Assembly (NCBI GenBank): GCA_963728565.1
Contig: CAVSLC010000007.1
Coordinates: 1 to 59,322 of the forward strand
Direction: 5' to 3'
DNA length: 59,322 nucleotides
Source: an uncultured delta proteobacterium
GTDB taxonomy: Bacteria > Desulfobacterota > Binatia > UBA9968
Under the pieces are notes generated by a model. The model worked only from the letters and a program-made list of their open reading frames with translations. It had not been told where the DNA came from and ran no database searches. A program made the translations under genes and the position numbers. Shown here piece by piece: positions 2,200 to 49,616 of the stretch (its first letter is position 1; each line of letters opens with the position of its first letter).

Positions 2200-3465
2200 C
2201 TATATCCTGTTCAGCGAAGCATAAGACGGCTCGCGAGCCACGCATGTTAGGGTGGCGGCGATCAGATAATTTGCGATGAACAATAGAAAGATAATTTGAT
2301 AGCTACCGCTCATATCGAAAGCCAATCCCGCCATCAAAGCTCCGACGCCCAGCCCGCCCTTATGAAAGGGCTCAAGGACGCTGGTGATGGCGCCGAACGA
2401 GCGCCGTCCGAAATACCGGGCAAGTAGAACATGCATCAGAACAAAACCGCCACGGGCGCTCAATCCGAAGATGATTGAGAAAAAAAACGCCGCCGGCGCG
2501 CCGCGCACTTGCGTCAGCAACACCACGGCGGCAGCCGCAAGCAGCATGGTCGCTACGCCCAGAGTGCGGGGATGGAATTTTTCCGCCAGGGCTCCCCACA
2601 GGCCGCTACCGAATGCTCCTGTCAAGGCCATGACGCTCAGTGCCCCGGCGGCTAGCGCGGGCTGAATGGTCATGTCCGTAAAATAGGCCACCATGTGAAA
2701 AGCGATGCCGCCGGTGGAAAGCGAATAGAAGCTGGCGGCCGCGACCAGGAGCCAGAGCGTTCGGGTGCGCATGGCATCTTTCAACGTCCAGCTCTGCTCG
2801 GTGGCCGCAGTGGGAGGCTCGGATTGCGGGCCGGCTTGCGCCGATTTCACAGCCGGCAAGGCTCCGTCGGGCAGCACTCCCATGTCTTCCGGCTGGCGGC
2901 GTAAAAAAAACAGGCCTGGCAAAACCACAAACAGCCAGAGCGCAACGCCAAGCATCATAAATGCGCTACGCCAACCGTAGGTTGCGATCATAAACTGGTA
3001 GAGCAGAGACAACACAAAAGATCCCAGCGGCACGGAGAGCGCGACCAAGCCGATAGCGCGGGGCCGCTTTGAATAAAACCAATTAGTCACCGCGGTCATC
3101 GGCACGACACCGGTGAGCAACGTTTCAGCCAGTCCTCGCGCAGGGACAAAGGTCGCGTAAAACTGCCAGGGCTCGTAGGTCAGGCTAAGGCACATGACGA
3201 ATGTGCCGACTAAGGCGGCGCCGACGGGAAGAAGGATGCGCGGTCCCAGTCTATCCGCGAGGGGACCTATCAAAGGCGCCAAAAGGCCGCCGGCCACCGA
3301 TCCGATGGTGATCGCCGAGGAAGTCAGGGTGCGACTCCAGCCAAGATCCTCAGTGATGGGCTTGAGAGCCACGGCCATGGTGACGTTACTTACTCCCGAG
3401 CCCAAAAAGCCGGCGAGCATGGCGATGCCGACGATGATCCAGCCATAAAAGAAAGGTAGTGTCAC
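2200..3465 (-). CDS. MFS transporter (OFA-like)
   Basis: About 12 hydrophobic segments; FFYGWIIV start; GPLADRLGPR motif A; YFGRRSFGAI. Confidence 0.92.
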   Translation of the reverse strand: MTLPFFYGWIIVGIAMLAGFLGSGVSNVTMAVALKPITEDLGWSRTLTSSAITIGSVAGGLLAPLIGPLADRLGPRILLPVGAALVGTFVMCLSLTYEPWQFYATFVPARGLAETLLTGVVPMTAVTNWFYSKRPRAIGLVALSVPLGSFVLSLLYQFMIATYGWRSAFMMLGVALWLFVVLPGLFFLRRQPEDMGVLPDGALPAVKSAQAGPQSEPPTAATEQSWTLKDAMRTRTLWLLVAAASFYSLSTGGIAFHMVAYFTDMTIQPALAAGALSVMALTGAFGSGLWGALAEKFHPRTLGVATMLLAAAAVVLLTQVRGAPAAFFFSIIFGLSARGGFVLMHVLLARYFGRRSFGAITSVLEPFHKGGLGVGALMAGLAFDMSGSYQIIFLLFIANYLIAATLTCVAREPSYASLNRI

Positions 3466-3861
3466 GGTTCGGCTTTAGCGATTGCGAGCGGCGGGTTTAC
3501 CAGCGCGATGGGAGGGTATCGATGGCGCATCGAGCATTGTCCCCGGGTACACGTAAGTGAGGCCAAGTAAATCGCGATATCAACAGCACTATGGCTCCAT
3601 TGCGCGCAATGTTTGCGAGTGAACCTTCCGGCATTTAATCAGACGGATTCCCGACCAAACCGCCTGCGGGGTTGGGGCAGATCGGGCGCGAACAAGTTGG
3701 TTCTCTTATTTCATCTTTCGGCAAAGAAAAAAAGACATAATCAACTTGATGTTGTATCGATGAGAAGTCTTGGAAGCCGCCTTACATCAAGCACAGCCTT
3801 TTGTTAGTTTGGATGAAACCCAGCAAAAGATTCGCAGTCGGAATAGCTAAGGAGACCTCGT

Positions 3862-4761
3862 TTGATCCGTATCGGGTACGCTTGCATCAACACTAAGCTG
3901 GACGCGCCTAATCGCACCTGCCGGCTAAAGAACGCAACCCCGGAAAAAATTCTTGAGCTGGCGGCGGCCAACCTCGAAGCGCTCCAGCCCATTTTGGATT
4001 GGAATGCGGCACACGGCATCGAGCTGTTTCGCATCACGTCGGACCTGATCCCATTTGGCTCGCATCCGATCAATACGATCCCATGGTGGCGGATCCTCAA
4101 GTCACAGTTCGCGCGGCTCGGTGATTTTATCGCGCGCAAGGGTTTGCGCGTCTCGATGCACCCCGGACAATTTACCATTCTCAACTCACCCCGTCGTGAA
4201 GTGGTTGCCAACAGCGTCAAAGAACTCGAATACCATACTGCGGTACTCGACGCGCTGGGAGTCGATAACAGCCATAAAATCGTCATTCACCTTGGCGGCG
4301 TCTACGGAGACAAAGCGGAAAGTCTCAGTCGCTTCGTCGAGAATTGCAAAAAGCTCAACTCCCATATCAGGGCCCGGCTCGTAATCGAGAACGACGAGCG
4401 CTGCTACGCGGTCGATGACGTGCTCGGCGCCTCTAGAGCGATCGGCGTGCCCGTCGTATTCGATGTCTTCCATCATGTTTGGAACCCGGCGCTCGAAGGG
4501 CTGCCGGTGAGATTAGTTATCGGGCTTGCCGCCAAGACCTGGCGCAAGCGCGATGGACGGGTCAAGATCCATTACTCGAACCAGTGGCCCGGAGGACCCG
4601 CGGGCGCTCACTCGAAGTCAATCAATGTCGGGAAGTTTTTGCGGTTTTATGACACGATCCACGATCTCGATCTGGACATCATGCTTGAGGTCAAAGACAA
4701 AGAGCAGTCGGTTTTGAAGCTCTTCCGAGCGCTGAGCGCGCGGCAACCTCGTGCCGCTTGA
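3862..4761 (+). CDS. uvsE: UV DNA damage endonuclease
   Basis: RIGYAC, LFRITSDLIPFGSHP, SMHPGQF, IHLGG, IENDE, FDVFHH, KIHYS, HS and MLEVKDKE motifs; AAGGAG RBS. Confidence 0.95.
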   Translation: MIRIGYACINTKLDAPNRTCRLKNATPEKILELAAANLEALQPILDWNAAHGIELFRITSDLIPFGSHPINTIPWWRILKSQFARLGDFIARKGLRVSMHPGQFTILNSPRREVVANSVKELEYHTAVLDALGVDNSHKIVIHLGGVYGDKAESLSRFVENCKKLNSHIRARLVIENDERCYAVDDVLGASRAIGVPVVFDVFHHVWNPALEGLPVRLVIGLAAKTWRKRDGRVKIHYSNQWPGGPAGAHSKSINVGKFLRFYDTIHDLDLDIMLEVKDKEQSVLKLFRALSARQPRAA

Positions 4762-4930
4762 TGGTTGTGAGCCAACTGAGGCAATTCAGAACGGCGCCGT
4801 CAGCGCACCTCCAAACAAAGCCGGTGCGCTAACAGACTTGGCTGGCGCAACTCAACCATCTAATCAGCTTCTGCGAACCATCGGAACGGAGCGGAGCGAC
4901 TAAACGTCTGGAACGATTTGAACAATCGCT

Positions 4931-5662
4931 TCAGCGATTTTCGATTGGCTCCAACCCGCTCTTGGTGATCGCGCCGGCCGCCTCAGGTGAGGCGAGGAAC
5001 TTGATCAGCGCGTGAGCCGCGTCCGAATCTCCGGTACTCCGGGCGACGCCGGCCGAGAAGACAGAAACTTTCTGCACCTCGGGAGGCAACGGTGTCACGT
5101 GATCGATCCCGGGTATGGGAAGCAGTTCGCTGATCTGCTGAAAGCCGATTTCCGCCTCTCCTCGCGCGACCACCGCGCCGACTCGCTCACCGCCTTCAAT
5201 GCGCCGGCACTTGCTCATCACCTGATCGGCTATTCCCAAGCGTTGAAGCAGCTCATTGGCCAAATATTCCCCGCTTACACTGGCCGAGTAGGCGATCGAG
5301 TTCGCTTGCAAAAGCGTGCGCGTCAGCGCGTCCACGGTGCTGATGTCCGGCTTGCGAGCTCCGGCGCGCACCGCCATGCCGATGGCTGAGCGTGCAACGG
5401 GAGTATAGCTTTCGGCAATTATCAGGCCTTCCTTGATGAATCCAAGTAGTACCGCATCCGCGACAATGACAACGTCTACGGGTTCACCACGTCGTAGCCG
5501 ATTCGGGATGGAGGTCTCCCCGGTCCCAATGGAGGTTGCGGCGGTCACGAGCTTCTTCCTGGTGACTAGTTCGAGTCGAGGAACGAGCTCAAGATAGGCC
5601 GCGGTAAAAGCCCCTGAGGTCATGACCCGTATTTCATCTGTCATGCTATTCGTTGTATTCAT
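4931..5662 (-). CDS. ModA-like substrate-binding-fold protein without signal peptide
   Basis: MTSGAFTAAY, IPNRLRRGEPVDVVI, SIAYSASVSG and VARGEAEIGFQQISEL motifs; start codon uncertain (5662 or 5644). Confidence 0.85.
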   Translation of the reverse strand: MNTTNSMTDEIRVMTSGAFTAAYLELVPRLELVTRKKLVTAATSIGTGETSIPNRLRRGEPVDVVIVADAVLLGFIKEGLIIAESYTPVARSAIGMAVRAGARKPDISTVDALTRTLLQANSIAYSASVSGEYLANELLQRLGIADQVMSKCRRIEGGERVGAVVARGEAEIGFQQISELLPIPGIDHVTPLPPEVQKVSVFSAGVARSTGDSDAAHALIKFLASPEAAGAITKSGLEPIENR

Positions 5663-38520: not shown

Positions 38521-39297
38521 ATGAAGATGATTTCACCCGTCAGCGAGTCGGCTTACTCCAAAGCTGTAGTGGCAGAGTACGGAACTCTCTTGTTTATCTC
38601 GGGACAGGAGTCCGTCGATCACGACGGAAGACTGATTGCGCCGGGGGATTTTAACGGACAGATCCAGCAGGTCTGGAACAACATGCGAGCCATCCTCGAG
38701 AAGGCCGGCGGCGAGCTCGACAAGATTGCCACGATGACGGTCTACACCACCGAACGACGCTGGGGCCGGCAGTTTACCGGTGGCAGAAAAGAAATTTTTA
38801 AAAAAGGTTTTCCGGCCAGTGCATTCGTCGAAGCTAGAAAACTCCGGACTCCCGGAGCGCTGCTACAGATTCCGGCCATCGCCGTTTTGGATGAAAGGAA
38901 AAGACATATGAGCGAGTCGCCTGAGAAATTATTCATCGATCCGTTACCCGAACTTGGGCAGTCGAGGGCCGTCAAGGTGCATGGAGGCAGTATGGTCTTT
39001 CTTGCCGGTCATACGGCCGGGGAAATGCCCGACGGCAGCGAAGCCTTCAATTTTACGCTACAGGCCAAGCGTACGTTTGATAGGATAAGAACCTCTATAG
39101 AATCAGCCGGCGGCCGGCTATCCGACATCGTCAGCATGTCGGTTTTCATGACCGACATGCGGCACGTGTCCGAGTTTCAGAACGTGCTCAGAGATCTTTT
39201 CGCTGATAATTTGCCGGCGAGCTCGTACGTGGAGGTAACCCATTTGGCGCGGCCTGAGCTTTTGCTGGAGATTCAACCCATCGCCGTCGTGGCCTAA
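38521..39297 (+). CDS. Tandem RidA/YjgF-family domains (fusion, or two genes joined by an indel)
   Basis: Two Rid domains: YSKAV...LFISGQ...FPASAFVE and SRAV...FLAGH...LPASSYVEV...LLEI; internal ATG 38908 preceded by AAAGGA. Confidence 0.85.
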   Translation: MKMISPVSESAYSKAVVAEYGTLLFISGQESVDHDGRLIAPGDFNGQIQQVWNNMRAILEKAGGELDKIATMTVYTTERRWGRQFTGGRKEIFKKGFPASAFVEARKLRTPGALLQIPAIAVLDERKRHMSESPEKLFIDPLPELGQSRAVKVHGGSMVFLAGHTAGEMPDGSEAFNFTLQAKRTFDRIRTSIESAGGRLSDIVSMSVFMTDMRHVSEFQNVLRDLFADNLPASSYVEVTHLARPELLLEIQPIAVVA

Positions 39298-39445
39298 CAG
39301 GCTGCTGAAAAAGACCCATATGCTTCGTTACGCTCAAATCGCCTCGCTGCAACGTACTGTGAGTACGTCTTAGCTCGTCGATTTTTCGCGCGCCTCGGGT
39401 CTGAATCTTTTGAGCAGCCCGCAACCAGAGTTTCTCAGCAACCCA
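39295..39445 (-). mobile_element. MITE-like repeat, copy 4 (variant A)
   Basis: Begins TAACAGGCTGCTGAAAAAGACCCATATGCTTCGTT, nearly the reverse complement of the 41441 copy; starts at the Rid stop codon. Confidence 0.85.
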
Positions 39446-39457
39446 CTCGGAGAACGG

Positions 39458-40462
39458 ATGCGACTACTCTTTCTGTTGCTTGCAACTTTTCTGTTGGCAT
39501 TTCCTTTCAGCAGCGCCTATGCGCAATCCGAGGATGAGCTCATCGCCGGAGCCAAGAAGGAAGCAAAAGTCACCTTCTGGAGCGGCATGGCGCTGGACGA
39601 TTCGCGCCTCGTGGCCGCCGGGTTCGAGAAGAGATATCCCTTCATCAAGGTCGATATTTTCCGCGCCGGAGGCGAGCAGATCGTAAACCGCGCGATCGCT
39701 GAGACCGGCGCCGGGCAAAACACCGCCGACGTGCTCAATGCTTTCGCTTTGAAGGTGCTGCAAGAAAGAAATTTTCTGCAACCGTACGCCGCCCCTGAAG
39801 CGGCCGCTTATCCGGCGGCCTACAAGGATCCCAAAAATTTTTGGGTATCGTTGAAGAACAATTACAATGTCATCGGTTACAACTCGAGGCTGGTCAGTTC
39901 TCAGGAAGCTCCCAAAAACTGGGAAGATCTCCTGCATCCGCGTTGGAAAGACAAGCTTGGCATGGACGACGAAGAGTACTTCTGGTACGCCGGGATGCTC
40001 AAGCACTGGGGCGAAGCCAAAGGCAAAAAATACATGGAAGCCTTGGCCAAGCAGGGCATTCAGTGGCGCAACGGACACAATCTGCTGGTGGAATTAATGG
40101 GCGCCGGCGAGTATCCCGTTTCAGTCGTTATCTATCCTGAACGCGCCGAACAGCTGAAGGCCAAAGGGCAAACGGTCGAATGGGTGAAGACCACCGATCC
40201 GATTCTGGTCAATATGGACATCATGGGCATCGCGGCCAAAGCGCCGCGTCCTAACGCGGCAAAGCTGTTTTTTAACTATGTGCTTTCCAAGGAAGCGCAG
40301 ATGATTCTCCACAGCCGCCATCGCATCTCGGCGCGCACGGACATCCCGCCGCTGGTGGCAAGCATGGAACCCAAGAAACTTCCATTGGTGCCGCTCGATC
40401 CGGCAATTCCGACGAATGCGAGCATCGTTCGCGAGTTCCGATCTGTCTTTGGATTGAAGTAA
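39458..40462 (+). CDS. Extracellular solute-binding protein (Fe3+/polyamine ABC type)
   Basis: Signal peptide; GAKKEAKV, FEKRYPFIKV, WEDLLHPRWK and APRPNAAKLF motifs. Confidence 0.9.
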   Translation: MRLLFLLLATFLLAFPFSSAYAQSEDELIAGAKKEAKVTFWSGMALDDSRLVAAGFEKRYPFIKVDIFRAGGEQIVNRAIAETGAGQNTADVLNAFALKVLQERNFLQPYAAPEAAAYPAAYKDPKNFWVSLKNNYNVIGYNSRLVSSQEAPKNWEDLLHPRWKDKLGMDDEEYFWYAGMLKHWGEAKGKKYMEALAKQGIQWRNGHNLLVELMGAGEYPVSVVIYPERAEQLKAKGQTVEWVKTTDPILVNMDIMGIAAKAPRPNAAKLFFNYVLSKEAQMILHSRHRISARTDIPPLVASMEPKKLPLVPLDPAIPTNASIVREFRSVFGLK

Positions 40463-40591
40463 CCGGCGATCTTACGCGTACAGCGCAAACAGCTCATTCA
40501 ACCATTCGCATGTGCGACGTTCACTAGCAGGAAATCGTCTAGCGGTGATACGTTGCGCGCAGTTAGCCGACCGAAAGGAGAGGACGTGACG

Positions 40592-41366
40592 ATGGAAATC
40601 ACAAGTGACAAGTTCCTCCTGTTCACCCAACCTGGTTGAAGCAGTTGCCTTAGAACGAAAGAGTTTCTTTCGAAAAAAGGCATTGAATTTTCGAGTATCG
40701 ACGTTCTGAACGACCCCGCCGGGCGAGAGCAGTTGCTCAGCCTGGGGGCGCAGAGCGTGCCGGTTCTGTCAAAGGATGGGCAGTTCATCTTCTGCCAGAA
40801 TATGGAAGACGTCGCTGAATTCGTCGGCCTGCAAGGCAGCGGAGACAGTCCGCTTCCTCCCGAAGCATTGTTCGAGAAATGGATCACCGTGCTGCGCGCA
40901 TCGCAACGTTACGTTCGCCAGATTCCCAACCCGCGACTCACCGGAGCGAGCTATCGAAAATCGCGACCGCTCGATCCGGCTTCTAAGCCATCACATTTTT
41001 CGCATCGGCGAAGCTTTCCTCGATACCGCCTTGGATGATGTGGAATACCGCACCAACAATGCCAACGTGCCGCCCGCCGACGGCAGCTGCTTGACCGGTG
41101 TCGAGATTGCCGCTTATGGTGACGGCATTATCGAAAGGATTAAGAACTGGTGGACCCAGCTCGAAGACAAAGCCTGCCGGCAAAAGGTCAGAACATTTTA
41201 TGGCATGCCGCCCATGCACCAACTGTTGGAGCGCTCAACTTGGCACTCAGCGCAGCATGCGCGCCAGTTGATCGCCGTGCTCGAGCGCCTGCGCATCGAA
41301 CCCGACAATCGGTTAACCGCTGAGGATCTTGCCGGACTACCTCTCCCCGAAGGGATTTGGGAGTAG
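40592..41366 (+). CDS. Putative selenoprotein: glutaredoxin (UxxC) fused to a DinB-like domain; 1-nt frameshift near 40943
   Basis: AAAGGAG RBS; reads FTQPG(TGA)SSCLRTKEFL...GIEF..IDV...GAQSVPV (glutaredoxin fold), then LLSHHIF...ERSTWHSAQHARQL (DinB-like His motif). Confidence 0.8.
40647..40681 (+). promoter_or_regulatory. Bacterial SECIS-like hairpin
   Basis: GCCTT/AAGGC lower stem, 4x4 internal loop, CGAAAGA/TCTTTCG upper stem, G-initiated apical loop 23 nt after TGA 40637-40639. Confidence 0.65.
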
Positions 41367-41440
41367 TAGAGCATCAACGATGTTTCACGATGAGGTTTCA
41401 AAGATCTCACGTGATCCTCGGGTGCAGATCCGGTCAAACC

Positions 41441-41597
41441 CTAGCAGGGTGCTGAAAAAAGCCTCTTGCAGGCTGCTCAAAAAGATCCAGATGCAAGGCG
41501 CGCGAAAAATCGACGAGCGGAGGCGTACTTACAGTACGTTGCAGCGAGGCGATTGAGCGGCAACGAAGCATATGGGTCTTTTTCAGCAGCCTGCTAG
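41441..41597 (+). mobile_element. MITE-like repeat, copy 5 (variant A, most intact)
   Basis: CTAGCAGGGTGCTGAAAAA...TTTTTCAGCAGCCTGCTAG terminal IRs, CTAG at both ends, and a second internal left end GCAGGCTGCTCAAAAA. Confidence 0.88.
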
Positions 41598-41740
41598 GCA
41601 GTACCTCGCCGAAACGTTAGTTGTTGATCCACCAGACTTTGCCGATCTCGCCTCCTGCTGATTTGCATAGCCTTGCGAGATTGGCTACTGTCGAAAGTTC
41701 CACAGTCAGCCGCAAACCCGCGTTTATTTCTGGAGGAAAA

Positions 41741-43009
41741 TTGCCCAAGCACGCCGAAAGCGTAGCCGCGCAGAGTGGAGCCGCACCAGCTAAACCGGTG
41801 GCTTTCGCTGCGCTGCGCCATCGTGATTTTCGTATTTTCTTCCCGGCCACCATGCTCGCCATGATGGCGGACAACATCGAGCACGTGATCAGTTATTGGC
41901 TGTTGTTCGAGAAGTTTCAGTCGCCTGTGCTTGCGGGTTTCGCCGTGATCAGTCACTGGACGCCGTTTCTCTTGCTCTCTGTTTACTTCGGCGGCCTGGC
42001 CGATCGCTACGATTGCCGCAAACTGATTCAGATTGCTCAGCTGATGTATATGGCCGTTTCCATCGCTTGGGCAATTCTCTTTTTCACGGACAGTCTCGAG
42101 GTTTGGCACGCCTGCGTGCTGCTCGTGATTCACGGCATCGCCGGCGTCTTCTGGACGCCTGCCGAGCAACTGCTGATTCATGACATTGTCGGCCCCGAAG
42201 ATCTGCCGAGCGCGGTGCGGCTCAACTCGACAAGCCGGCAGTTGGGGATTTTGCTCGGTCCGGCGGTGGGCGGGGCCATGATGCTGTGGCTCGGCGCGCC
42301 GGCCGGCTTGCTCATCAACGCGATCATTTATCTGCCGCTGACTATCTGGCTGATGATCGTTCCTTACACCGGCCATCTCCGCGACGATGCGCCGCCGCGG
42401 CGCGCGATGGCTTGGAAGGATGCCATCGTCACGCTGCGGCAGATTATGGAGCACCGGCCGATTGTGACCATGATCGCGTTGGGTGGCGCTGCTTCGCTAT
42501 TTGTCGGCAATGCGTTTCACGCCCAGATGCCGGAGTTTGCCCATGACCTCGGCACGGAAAAAGCAGATCTCACGTACAGCGCTTTGCTTGCCGCCAATGC
42601 CGCGGGGGCGGTAGTGGGCGGGTTCGTGCTCGATGGCAAGGACTGGGTTCCGCCGACGGTGAGGTCGGCAATCCTCTGCGCAATCCTGTGGTGCGTGGTG
42701 ATGGCGGCTTTCGCTTTTTCCTACAGCTACCCGGTGTCGGTGGCGCTGTTGTTTTGCGCCGGGGCTTTGAATCTCGCTTTCTACTCCACGGCGCAGACCA
42801 TCGTTCAGCTGCAGGCGCCGATCGATTTGCGCGGCCGGCTGATCGGCTTGTTTACGATGTCGGCCTATGGTCTGCGCGCCTTCAGCGGCGTTACCGTCGG
42901 CGTAGTCGGCGGCTTGATCGGCATCCACTGGTCTCTGGCGCTGAGCTCGATGATTCTTCTTGGCATTACTCTGGCATTATTCGCTTTTGCGCTGCCGGCG
43001 CAAAAGTGA
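41741..43009 (+). CDS. MFS transporter (MFS_3-like)
   Basis: TTG start after GGAGG; FAALRHRDFR and GGLADRYDCR motifs; about 12 TM segments. Confidence 0.92.
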   Translation: MPKHAESVAAQSGAAPAKPVAFAALRHRDFRIFFPATMLAMMADNIEHVISYWLLFEKFQSPVLAGFAVISHWTPFLLLSVYFGGLADRYDCRKLIQIAQLMYMAVSIAWAILFFTDSLEVWHACVLLVIHGIAGVFWTPAEQLLIHDIVGPEDLPSAVRLNSTSRQLGILLGPAVGGAMMLWLGAPAGLLINAIIYLPLTIWLMIVPYTGHLRDDAPPRRAMAWKDAIVTLRQIMEHRPIVTMIALGGAASLFVGNAFHAQMPEFAHDLGTEKADLTYSALLAANAAGAVVGGFVLDGKDWVPPTVRSAILCAILWCVVMAAFAFSYSYPVSVALLFCAGALNLAFYSTAQTIVQLQAPIDLRGRLIGLFTMSAYGLRAFSGVTVGVVGGLIGIHWSLALSSMILLGITLALFAFALPAQK

Positions 43010-43028: not shown

Positions 43029-44556
43029 TTATTTCGCTTCAGCACTGTCAAGCGAAGCGTTGTCTGAAGCAGCGACGGCCGATCGTTTTTCAAGCCGCAA
43101 CGAAAAATCCTTCCTCTGAATGAAGATTTGCTTGGTATCTTTGCGTTGCGCCAATGAGCTGATCAACGTCATCAGAGGCGTCGCCGTGCTCCTGTAATCC
43201 TTTGCCGGGGCCGCCGCCTTCATACTTGCAACATAATCTTCTCCGGCAAAATAACGGAGAATTTTCTCATCGTCCGAGACGCCGTCGCCGCCAAATTTCG
43301 CTCTAAACTCTTTGACTGAAATCTCCGGCAGCGTCCATTTGGCCAGCTCCTTGGCGCGCGCGCCGGCTGAGAATCATATCTCTGACATTGGCATCGATGG
43401 AGCGCGCTTCCTCTTCGCCCCAGTGGCCGAGCGCGTATTGAATCATCTCATCGGTAACCTCTTTGTAACGTTCTCCGACCATGACGTTGATCGCCGCTTG
43501 CACGCCGACAAATTGTGAATAGGGGGTCACCATGATCGGATAGCCAAACTCCGCCCTGACCCGAACCACCTCCTCGAGCACCGCGTCCAGTTGATCGAGT
43601 TTGCCGAGGTTTGCCAGTTGGAAGCGGAAGTTTGAAATCATGCCGCCGGGCACCTGATGAATTGGATGAAAGGCGTCATACTCGACCGGCCTGCCGATGG
43701 GAAGATTTTCTTGTTTGGCGACCGCGGTGAAATGCTCGCTCACTGGCTTGAGAGCCTCTTCGTCGATTGCGGTGGAGTAACCCAGCGCCCGCGCGTTCAT
43801 CGCGACATTGAAGATCGACGGGTTAGAGGAAGCCTCCGCTAGAGGAGGGATCGCTGTGTTGATCGAGCGGATTCCCGCCTTGATCGCCTCCAGGCAGGAC
43901 GGCGCACCGAGACCGGTGGTGCAGTGCGTGTGAAACTCGACCGGTTTACCGTTGGCATTCTCGAGGATCAATGGAACCAGCGCGCGGGTTCGCTGCGGCG
44001 TGAGCAAGCCTCCCGGATCTTTGAAGCAGATGCGCGCCACGTCGAGTTTGGCGGCTTCGCGAATTCTCCGAAGAAAATAATCGTCGGTGTGTTTCGGCGA
44101 TATCGAATAGATAATGTTGAGGATCGTTTTGAGCCCCAGACGATTGGCGCCGGCCACCGACTCCGCCCAGTATGACGGAGTATTGGAAGGATCCGAGGTG
44201 CGCAGCTCGGAGATCCCGTTAGCGGCTAATCGCTCGAGCCAGAGCTCGGCGATGGCGGGTGGGGTGATCTGAAACGCCAGCATGGAGCGGCTGCGGATGG
44301 CGCGGAGCGGCGTTTTCTTAGCGCGTTGCGCCACCAATCGCGTACGTTCCCAGAGATCTTCTTTCAGGTCGCGAACCGCCTTCTTAAAAAATGCCGAGGA
44401 AATCAGCTCGAACGCTTCAAAGCCGGCCGCATCGATGTGATCAATAACCGGCAGCATCATACGTGTGGTCATATTAGAGGCCCACAGACTCAACTGCCCA
44501 TCGCGCAAGGTGGTGTCGACGAAACGAATTTTATCGGTTTGTTTCATGTCATTCAT
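43029..44556 (-). CDS. Pyruvate carboxylase subunit B / oxaloacetate decarboxylase alpha-like carboxyltransferase lacking a biotinyl domain; frameshift near 43365
   Basis: DTTLRDGQ, FKDPGG, FHTHCTTG, HQVPGGMISN and GYPIMVTPYSQFVG motifs; continues in ORF 43029-43223. Confidence 0.88.
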
Positions 44557-44905
44557 AGGCAATGATTTGATAACCAGGATTCCGCACTTCAAACGGTAAA
44601 CCGATCTCGATCAAGCGGCAAGCCTTCCGGAGCGAAGACCGTAGTTCTTTGTGCAGGCCGGGATCATCCAGCCTTTGACGAAACCATGACTCTGTGTTGC
44701 CCGAGGAGTGAGCCTCGGAGCGAGCGGAAACAGGAACGTAAAAGCACCGCCGCTTATTGAGTTGGCAATAACCTTCGTTTTCTCCCGCTGTGCACTCCAC
44801 CACTGAGGTCGCAGGCTTTCTCAAGGCATAGGCCCATTGCCCGCGACCGGAGAGGCTCGCTCCTCGGGCACTCTCGGAATCGGAATGAACAAGCGCTGTC
44901 ATAAT

Positions 44906-47060: not shown

Positions 47061-47181
47061 AGGTTCCTCCCGCAAGGTAAAATCGCCGGAACGGCGCATT
47101 GCAGATCATAGGAATCTTATATTTAGAAGTCGCGGCGATTTGCAATCCGTTGCGGCATTTCTATTGTTGAATTGCAGACGG

Positions 47182-49470: not shown

Positions 49471-49616
49471 CTACAGAAACTCTGATTACAGGCTGCTCAA
49501 AAGGGTCCAGAGGCAAGGCGCGCGAAGTTCGATGAGCTGAGGCGTACGCTTCAGTATCTTGAAGCGAATCGATCGAGCGGAACGAAGCATATGGATCGTT
49601 TTCAGCAGCCTGCTAG
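49471..49616 (+). mobile_element. MITE-like repeat, copy 6 (variant A)
   Basis: TACAGGCTGCTCAAAA...AAGGCGCGCGAA...AACGAAGCATATGG...TTTTCAGCAGCCTGCTAG. Confidence 0.85.

Follow-up and report, generated by a model that had tools for sequence, protein, structure and literature searches.

Organization of the Grx-DinB gene

The 59,322-nucleotide (nt) stretch of contig CAVSLC010000007.1 analyzed here (assembly GCA_963728565.1, uncultured delta proteobacterium; the window) carries at 40592-41366 on its forward strand a candidate selenoprotein gene, in which a glutaredoxin (Grx)-like domain with an internal TGA codon is joined to a DinB/YfiT-like domain. The TGA takes the first position of a UxxC motif, U standing for selenocysteine (Sec), and we propose that the gene belongs to a family of bacterial selenoproteins of about 257 amino acids (aa). 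The locus comprises the following features:

40575-40583, plus strand: Shine-Dalgarno-like purine-rich AAGGAGAGG, 8-16 nt 5' of the ATG (read from the sequence)
40592-40636, plus strand: start ATG (40592) and 15 codons (MEITSDKFLLFTQPG) 5' of the Sec codon; first strand of the Grx fold
40637-40639, plus strand: TGA, proposed Sec codon (U16), position 1 of UxxC; a conserved column in relatives
40646-40648, plus strand: TGC, Cys19, resolving Cys of UxxC; nearly invariant in an alignment of 48 sequences
40647-40681, plus strand: extended stem-loop, with a lower stem GCCUU/AAGGC flanking the core hairpin; -11.9 kcal/mol
40656-40672, plus strand: core hairpin CGAAAGA-GUU-UCUUUCG, 7 bp, loop at 40663-40665, 16 nt 3' of the TGA
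40592-40831, plus strand: glutaredoxin/NrdH-like domain, residues 1-80 (PF00462 match, fold match)
40940-40944, plus strand: ACCGG with one extra base (C or G), frame shifted (comparison with relatives)
40847-41363, plus strand: DinB/YfiT-like four-helix bundle (ortholog residues 86-257), in a second frame from ~40944
40992-40994, plus strand: codon of His134, the first conserved His; nearly invariant in the 48 sequences
41244-41258, plus strand: H218-S-A-Q-H222 within a WHSAQHARQ motif, the second and third conserved His (48-sequence alignment)
41364-41366, plus strand: TAG stop of the gene (read from the sequence)

The frame opening at 40592 reads MEITSDKFLLFTQPG-TGA-SSCLRTKEFL, with SVP further 3', and becomes MEITSDKFLLFTQPG-U-SSCLRTKEFLSKKGIEF...SVPVLSKDGQFIFCQ when the TGA is read through. 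The ribosome binding site, the ATG and the TGA at the first Cys of a glutaredoxin CxxC motif all lie where an initial annotation, made from the window alone, had put them, and AAGGAGAGG is preserved in the same-genus relatives. The N-terminus is, as also stated there, missed by the plain list of open reading frames (ORFs), in which the gene begins no earlier than 40776 (196 aa) or 40733. With 775 nt, the span 40592-41366 is no multiple of three: the Grx frame stops at a TGA at 41036-41038 and the DinB part lies in another frame. The assembled gene needs a recoded TGA as well as a frame correction, and the 257-aa protein is obtained only if one base at 40940-40944 is ignored. The fusion of roughly 257 aa that had been predicted is intact in an ortholog of exactly this length, while the window copy is out of frame as assembled.

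Conservation of the TGA codon and cysteine homologues

When 60 relatives were searched with the DinB part, 15 orthologs were found that share 64-92% identity with it. Their open frame comprises 241 aa (240 in L031, at a contig end), the length left of the 257-aa protein once the in-frame stop and the 15 codons 5' of it are subtracted. The codon directly 5' of this frame is TGA in 14 of the 14 orthologs in which it can be judged, the fifteenth (L031) being cut at its contig end, with F[VI]LFTQPG ahead of it and an ATG some 15 codons upstream. F[VI]LFTQPG is preserved in all 14, and its codons (-8 to -1) vary synonymously while the peptide is invariant, so that coding conservation in one frame was observed on both sides of the TGA. 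A distant subfamily from other genera of the same taxonomic family, with 26-28% identity in the DinB part, reads KVYYRPG-TGA-FTC[SA]STKEFL in four of four loci, bringing the TGA to 18 of 18 judgeable relatives from the window's own taxonomic family. Unpublished genomes contribute to several of the counts in this study, namely L029/G018 to the 14 of 14 and to the 17 of 18 given below for the hairpin, L095/G565 to the 22 of 22 for Burkholderiales, G565 to four rows of the Burkholderiales matches, and G012 and G018 to the family-match and selB tallies; the conclusions hold without them, and the TGA is found in 13 of 13 orthologs when L029 (G018) is left out.

The family was also found in 29 genomes of a sample of 251 Burkholderiales, with 43 matches, 34 of which contain one TGA and nine none, one of the latter being a fragment short of the site. 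All 22 TGA-form loci that were read keep the same TGA, and eight TGC forms stand beside them. The same column was examined in an alignment of 48 sequences, made up of two Sec forms and 46 full-length homologues chosen among 150 listed of 1112 representative matches (E <= 1e-3; coverage from residue 10 or earlier to near the end). Column 16 holds Cys in at least 90% of the 48 sequences; by pattern match, Cys was present in 44 of the 46 homologues and another residue in two. The comparison proposed initially, whether homologs carry Cys or TGA at this column, was thus answered with TGA in the 18 relatives and Cys in most of the alignment. Inspection of 40637-40639 in sequencing data, proposed in the same place, was possible in soil-metagenome contigs of related strains; those covering the codon keep the TGA unchanged.

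A hairpin accompanies the TGA codon

The stem-loop described initially at 40647-40681, with a G-led apical loop 23 nt after the TGA, was recovered as such, the loop G lying at 40663. Its folding energy is -11.9 kcal/mol with the lower stem and -5.2 kcal/mol for the core hairpin alone. Compared with shuffled sequence, the surrounding 71-nt stretch reached a fold z of -2.3, and two of 200 shuffles folded as well, which taken alone is weak evidence for a selenocysteine insertion sequence (SECIS); it is the comparative evidence that makes the hairpin more than chance. In 17 of 18 relatives the 17-mer CGAAAGAGTTTCTTTCG stands at an unchanged offset; the remaining one, L035, has GUC for GUU in the loop. 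The 17-nt hairpin is likewise identical in 22 of 22 Burkholderiales TGA forms (21 of 21 without L095, G565) and, overall, letter-identical in 39 of 40 TGA loci. It is absent from eight of eight Burkholderiales TGC forms, which encode the same K-E-F-L by other codons (AAG GAG TTC CTG). Among 108 invariant degenerate codons in 14 orthologs only eight are written with a single codon, and five of these are +1, +7, +8, +10 and +11 after the TGA; synonymous sites are, by this codon comparison, frozen across the hairpin. Relatives differ in the lower stem, which shows one double change in L034 (C-G to U-A) and is weakened in L027.

The published bacterial SECIS (bSECIS) model gives a loop of 3-9 nt whose first or second base is G, a stem of 4-16 bp, a distance of 16-37 nt to the UGA and a minimum free energy of -7.5 or lower (PMC13188914). 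A GUU loop, a 7-bp stem, a spacing of 23 nt and, with the lower stem, -11.9 kcal/mol place the window hairpin within each of these limits; together with its presence in TGA forms and absence from the eight TGC forms, this supports the hairpin on the point for which a SECIS search had been suggested. Across the whole genome, the pattern TGA-N(10-22)-17-mer has a single occurrence. In run X1, one soil contig carries G>A at 40672, the closing base pair, a synonymous change (TCG>TCA) that leaves a 6-bp stem.

Selenocysteine machinery of the genome

The genome encodes selA (607.5 bits), selB (395.7 bits) and selD (382.3 bits, with one TGA), all above their cut-offs, in a row on contig 28 (34981-39495; loci L001, L008 and L010), while the Grx-DinB gene lies on contig 7. 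A tRNA-Sec (74.2 bits) was found on contig 25 and is called SeC with anticodon tca by ARAGORN, so that the full selA/selB/selC/selD set whose presence had been made a check of the prediction is there. The genome's own selD has its TGA at the classical Sec position (AAGU-AAKLG). Its TGA is followed after 26 nt by a hairpin, CGUGCAA-GUU-UUGCACG, of 7 bp and with the same GUU loop as the Grx-DinB hairpin. The lineage uses Sec generally: selB scored above the cut-off in 55 of 61 genomes of the group. Because selB is nearly universal in this group, its co-occurrence with the Grx-DinB gene does not discriminate.

Domain composition and predicted fold

With the TGA read through, the N-terminal part matches Pfam Glutaredoxin PF00462 at 1.6e-13 (51.1 bits against a cut-off of 22.9), which together with the SVP bears out the glutaredoxin-like sequence noted initially 3' of the TGA. 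The AlphaFold model of P0003, an intact ortholog of 257 aa whose DinB part is 92% identical to that of the window, reached a pLDDT of 94.2 and a pTM of 0.91, the latter suggesting that the UxxC redoxin and DinB domains are held in a fixed arrangement in the predicted structure. Residues 8-12 of the model form a strand followed by a helix at 17-28, and residues 5-79 match NrdH/Grx-like redoxins (3zij, Z 13.4, root-mean-square deviation (rmsd) 1.4 over 75 residues; 1h75, Z 11.6); the best NCBIfam and fold matches of this head are YruB/NrdH-type redoxins.

The predicted DinB-like domain was confirmed as a four-helix-bundle fold in the ortholog model, residues 86-242 matching 6iz2_B with Z 15.4 and an rmsd of 2.4 over 144 of 144 residues. 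Further DinB/YfiT matches were 3di5 (Z 14.8), 2p1a (14.0), 1rxq (13.5), the mycothiol S-transferase 8f5v (12.2) and BstA 5wk0 (9.7); helical bundles can reach Z values of about 13 by arrangement alone, and the top rows here are all DinB proteins. Foldseek against PDB placed the same DinB and Grx chains first with a best E of 1.1e-3, thus returning no row at E <= 0.001, and these chains were confirmed by the full VIA-align search. Across the 48 sequences G204, H222, R224 and Q225 are invariant, and U/C16, S18, C19, K23, E24, P57, H134, E213, R214, W217 and H218 nearly so. The conserved H134, H218 and H222 would correspond to the His triad expected of a DinB/YfiT fold, and H218 and H222 have the H-x3-H spacing of DinB proteins.

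An extra base in the window copy

The window has ACCGG at 40940-40944 where relatives have ACGG or ACCG and encode Thr-Glu (ACG-GAR or ACC-GAG). They read NPRLTERAIENRDRS through the site uninterrupted, with the peptide ...NPRLTERAIENRDRSIRLLSHHIF... across it, and none of them is frameshifted there. The extra base is missing from four of four same-genus genomes and, as regards the inspection at 40943 that had been advised, from five of five soil contigs covering the site in three metagenome runs (X1 three, X2 one, X4 one). These runs represent related strains and not the source, the best of them holding 0.34 of the words.

A second insertion of 1 nt that is found only in the window was observed at ~43361, within a coding GCGCGCGC run, and is missing from all four same-genus relatives (20 kb compared). 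Located 2.4 kb away, it cuts the minus-strand gene at 43303-44592 (continuing to ~43029), which has a carboxylase domain (PYC_OADA, HMGL-like) and which all four relatives read on for about 110 more residues to ...AEAK; this insertion is probably a second assembly indel, to judge from the comparison. Both insertions are isolated, the reading frames beyond them being otherwise intact. Other loci from metagenome-assembled genomes (MAGs) have isolated frameshifts of their own, in the Grx-DinB gene near residue 95 (L046, 4001-4772) and in the adjoining MFS gene of G005 (L021, ~2174-2183). As far as these alignments go, the isolated breaks are scattered among assemblies and not shared. An indel at 47166 was not counted as a frameshift, since it is shared by all four relatives and intergenic. 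Since the second window-only insertion breaks a neighbouring gene, an assembly error becomes the likelier cause of the extra base in the Grx-DinB gene, and from the sequence comparison we consider it probably a consensus error, leaving a small chance for a true pseudogene in this strain. The genome is 80.55% complete by marker genes despite comprising only 28 contigs.

Distribution and history of the family

The family is present in 25 of 36 sampled genomes of the window's taxonomic family. A word-indexed database search returned 3673 proteins at E <= 0.001, with 1112 matches among cluster representatives. The best 120 of these 3673 entries have all been called as proteins of 200-238 aa (200, 202, 210, 215, 219 and 238). 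A phylum-wide sample gave a match (E <= 1e-15) in only three of 301 genomes, so that the gene is no trait of the phylum, and every match covering the site has the TGA. The named relatives are MAGs of Candidatus Binatia or uncultured delta proteobacterium and one Cys form of Burkholderiales.

A tree (IQ-TREE, LG+G4, SH-aLRT support only, midpoint root for drawing) was built from 90 rows, comprising 36 Sec, 52 Cys and two other forms and leaving out L031 and L036-L039. All 36 Sec forms fall within one clade of 41 rows (support 95), and an all-Sec clade that also holds Burkholderiales rows encloses the 14 Binatia-type rows (94). This nesting is compatible with a transfer between the Binatia-type and Burkholderiales groups, to which we assign no direction. 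When L036-L039, the distant subfamily, were added (94 rows), the four grouped separately, together with Cys forms, on weakly supported branches (49 and 88). Changes between Sec and Cys number at least four to six across trees, and at least six in the 94-row tree, three of them forced by strong branches. An old origin or two separate origins may account for the identical hairpin of the two subfamilies. AAAGA-GUU-UCUUU, a palindrome, is one way of encoding K-E-F-L, for which the Cys forms (L078-L106) use other synonymous codons. Since synonymous choices alone produce the palindrome, a SECIS may be reachable from a Cys form by silent changes, and the site would then be easy to convert between Cys and Sec.

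Gene neighbourhood and nearby repeats

The SBP gene upstream and the MFS gene downstream of the Grx-DinB gene are retained only within the genus. Further upstream, 38521-39297 (plus strand) encodes a 258-aa protein with two tandem Rid/YjgF (Ribonuc_L-PSP) stretches. Co-transcription of the Grx-DinB gene with the SBP and Rid genes, raised as a possibility by the initial annotation, found no backing: the linkage is not conserved, the SBP gene being kept only in the genus, and a repeat separates Rid from SBP. A promoter/terminator scan of 39200-41800 remained at the level of shuffled sequence (one found against 1.1 expected; four against 3.2) and is uninformative on transcription units. Apparent neighbour clusters among 20 loci proved to be overlapping frames of the Grx-DinB gene itself and were discarded.

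The repeat is interspersed, about 155 nt long and present at 39293-39443 (minus strand), 41441-41598 (plus strand) and 49486-49616 (plus strand), with 30-nt terminal inverted arms (41465-41494 and 41568-41597) that are 87% complementary. It looks like a miniature inverted-repeat transposable element (MITE) or a repetitive extragenic palindromic (REP) element. In its own genome, where 40 of 104 candidates were scored, the repeat has at least 41 matches; genomes of the same genus hold many as well, and its depth in the soil-metagenome contigs is 3000-5000. Two inverted copies flank the SBP gene and the selenoprotein gene, and synteny with relatives breaks there.

Immediately upstream of the Grx-DinB gene, four of four loci of the distant subfamily carry a conserved ORF that is 137-151 aa long:

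L036, 710-1138: conserved upstream ORF
L037, 2267-2680: conserved upstream ORF
L038, 2262-2714: conserved upstream ORF
L039, 737-1147: conserved upstream ORF

The ORFs of L036 and L039, both of which were scanned, match Pfam Glyoxalase/VOC PF00903, which is unrelated to Glutaredoxin. A VOC neighbour is a weak hint at thiol-dependent detoxification of electrophiles.

Weighing of the selenoprotein reading

From these comparisons we conclude, with a probability of about 0.85, that the window gene is an ortholog of a real and uncatalogued family of bacterial selenoproteins of ~257 aa and that the insertion in the window is most likely a consensus error. The central proposal of the initial annotation, a hidden selenoprotein in which a UxxC glutaredoxin-like domain is fused to a DinB-like domain, is supported by TGA conservation, hairpin, machinery and fold alike.

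Several observations weigh against this conclusion. The evidence for a selenoprotein is comparative throughout, and no sequencing run with reads of the source sample turned up, the best one containing 0.34 of the words. The hairpin reaches an energy of -7.5 or lower only with its lower stem, the core alone remaining at -5.2 kcal/mol, and this lower stem is not kept in the distant subfamily; no covariation was seen in the core among the compared loci, as the core never varies, and Rfam gave no SECIS family at 40400-41700 (E <= 10), the only two rows being chance matches with E 1.4 and 6.5. No selB was found (E <= 1e-60) in six of the 27 relatives matching the DinB query (G001, G007, G015, G016, G032 and G045, 81-100% complete); one of the 27, G039, matched the query only at E 5.5e-4 and with stops, and the missing selB matches in the six gene-carrying genomes may reflect MAG fragmentation. 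The window's subfamily scored 15.0-16.1 bits with the DinB_2 profile, whose cut-off is 24.8, while the distant subfamily is above the cut-offs (DinB_2 25.9 against 24.8; DinB 24.9 against 23). ORF clustering of 20 loci revealed no neighbour common across genera for the main subfamily, and the coupling of selenol chemistry to a DinB thiol-transferase site is conjecture.

Of the other explanations, the one that comes closest grants that the family consists of genuine selenoproteins and takes the window copy for a true pseudogene, disrupted by a real 1-nt insertion at 40940-40944. The assembly is indeed out of frame with no source reads to set against it, and since L046, from a MAG, is frameshifted elsewhere in its own copy, losses could recur. 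Nevertheless we regard a pseudogene as unlikely: the DinB frame past the insertion runs without a stop or other indel at 92% protein identity to the closest relative, the second window-only insertion breaks an unrelated conserved gene only 2.4 kb away, and two fresh and otherwise undamaged pseudogenes so close to each other are less likely than consensus error. A completeness of 80.55% on 28 contigs also fits genes broken by indels.

The two explanations that dispense with Sec fare far worse. If the TGA were an ordinary stop, MEITSDKFLLFTQPG would be a leader peptide of 15 residues and the true product a shorter protein of 200-238 aa starting downstream, which is how the best 120 database entries have been called. 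These called starts disagree with one another, however, and would leave the Grx fold without its redox motif and its first strand; moreover, the peptide 5' of the TGA is conserved under synonymous change, Cys homologues are continuous across the site and the hairpin follows TGA but not TGC, all of which makes a stop very improbable. Read-through without Sec, by a changed genetic code or by near-cognate insertion of Trp or Cys, is compatible with the conservation pattern as far as read-through as such is concerned, and a frame that is open under a changed code says nothing of the code in use. It appears slightly less probable still, given a selD with its TGA at a known Sec position, a dedicated tRNA-Sec with selA and selB, a TGA-linked hairpin of bSECIS form that simple read-through would not need, and the TGA that closes the out-of-frame Grx ORF at 41036-41038.

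Proposed mechanism and significance

According to the selenoprotein reading, the UGA at 40637-40639 would be decoded as Sec by SelB and tRNA-Sec, both recruited by the hairpin CGAAAGA-GUU-UCUUUCG, which lies inside the coding sequence 16 nt downstream. The product would be an NrdH/glutaredoxin-like domain with a U-S-S-C redox centre, fused to a four-helix bundle of the DinB/YfiT type that is predicted to hold a metal on H134, H218 and H222, and the organism probably makes the protein intact, the insertion being a consensus error. The biochemical function is inferred. The DinB domain may bind and activate a substrate at its metal site, as thiol S-transferases of the superfamily do, and the fused selenol/thiol pair may provide the nucleophile or the reducing equivalents, replacing or recycling a free thiol, before being re-reduced by a cellular reductase. 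NrdH-type redoxins are reduced by thioredoxin reductase in known cases, and by analogy the NrdH-like head suggests reduction by this enzyme rather than by glutathione. The outcome would be a one-chain transferase or reductase for the detoxification of electrophiles or oxidants. A more specific version, which we find rather doubtful, is that the tethered selenolate itself works at the DinB metal centre, where it stands in for the free low-molecular-weight thiol, and that the SECIS was carved from the K-E-F-L codons at a site pre-adapted for switching between Cys and Sec; it would explain the identical hairpin in two deeply separated subfamilies and two phyla as well as the several Sec/Cys switches.

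The family is common in uncultured soil bacteria. As its best database entries are truncated, annotation strips the active site from a widespread redox enzyme, and counts of the soil selenoproteome are too low. A selenoprotein of this composition ties selenium use to the DinB/YfiT superfamily, and the contrast between TGA with hairpin and TGC without hairpin on one and the same peptide offers a clean natural system for the origin of a SECIS within coding sequence. The window copy is also a caution, as an annotation pipeline would call it a pseudogene twice over.

Comparison with known systems

DinB is not mentioned in the main text of a prokaryotic selenoprotein inventory from 2026, in which a supplementary listing under another name (Grx-like, hypothetical) is possible (PMC13188914), and titles and abstracts in the literature yielded no paper on a DinB selenoprotein or a DinB-glutaredoxin fusion. 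The inventory includes a Sec-containing glutaredoxin (PF00462, UxxC) among the experimentally verified prokaryotic selenoproteins (PMC13188914). The window family resembles this protein in its thioredoxin fold, the Sec at the first position of CxxC, the coding-region hairpin after the UGA and the existence of Cys homologues. Unlike the known Sec-glutaredoxins, which are small stand-alone redoxins, it is NrdH/YruB-like, seems to have no obvious glutathione site of the GG-x-DD type and is permanently fused to a DinB domain of 170 residues.

In enzymes of the DinB/YfiT type three His bind a metal; these proteins couple bacillithiol, mycothiol or glutathione to electrophiles, a thiol being activated for the attack in the known members, and the physiological substrates of the superfamily (BstA/YfiT, MST, DR0053) are described as unknown (PMC10950700). 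The window family shares with this superfamily the four-helix bundle, and its three conserved His may correspond to those of the metal site in most members. A redoxin domain, present in the window family, is missing from the known enzymes, which work with a free low-molecular-weight thiol, and the sequence similarity is marginal.

Among the fusion selenoproteins of NCBIfam (NF045501 HUGP/GUXX-star; UXX-star), a similar Grx-like Sec domain is found, fused in some cases and typically truncated by gene callers. No NCBIfam model reached its cut-off on the full-length protein, the scores for the UXX-star and fusion models being 38.3 against 66 (NF041212), 25.4 against 325 (NF045501), 25.5 against 100 (NF041211), 23.6 against 97 (NF047338) and 17.7 against 72 (NF041114). 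UXX-star proteins end just after the Sec motif, whereas the window family continues for 241 residues. The order of a thiol-binding thioredoxin-fold domain and an all-helical domain recalls GST and Grx2, and Foldseek aligns whole GST chains to the model; the helical fold is a different one, however, with a TM of about 0.3 and an rmsd of 10-16 over the whole chain, making this an analogy and not a membership. The Grx-DinB proteins are a new family of a well-known kind, thioredoxin-fold UxxC selenoproteins with a standard bSECIS and an unusual fusion partner.

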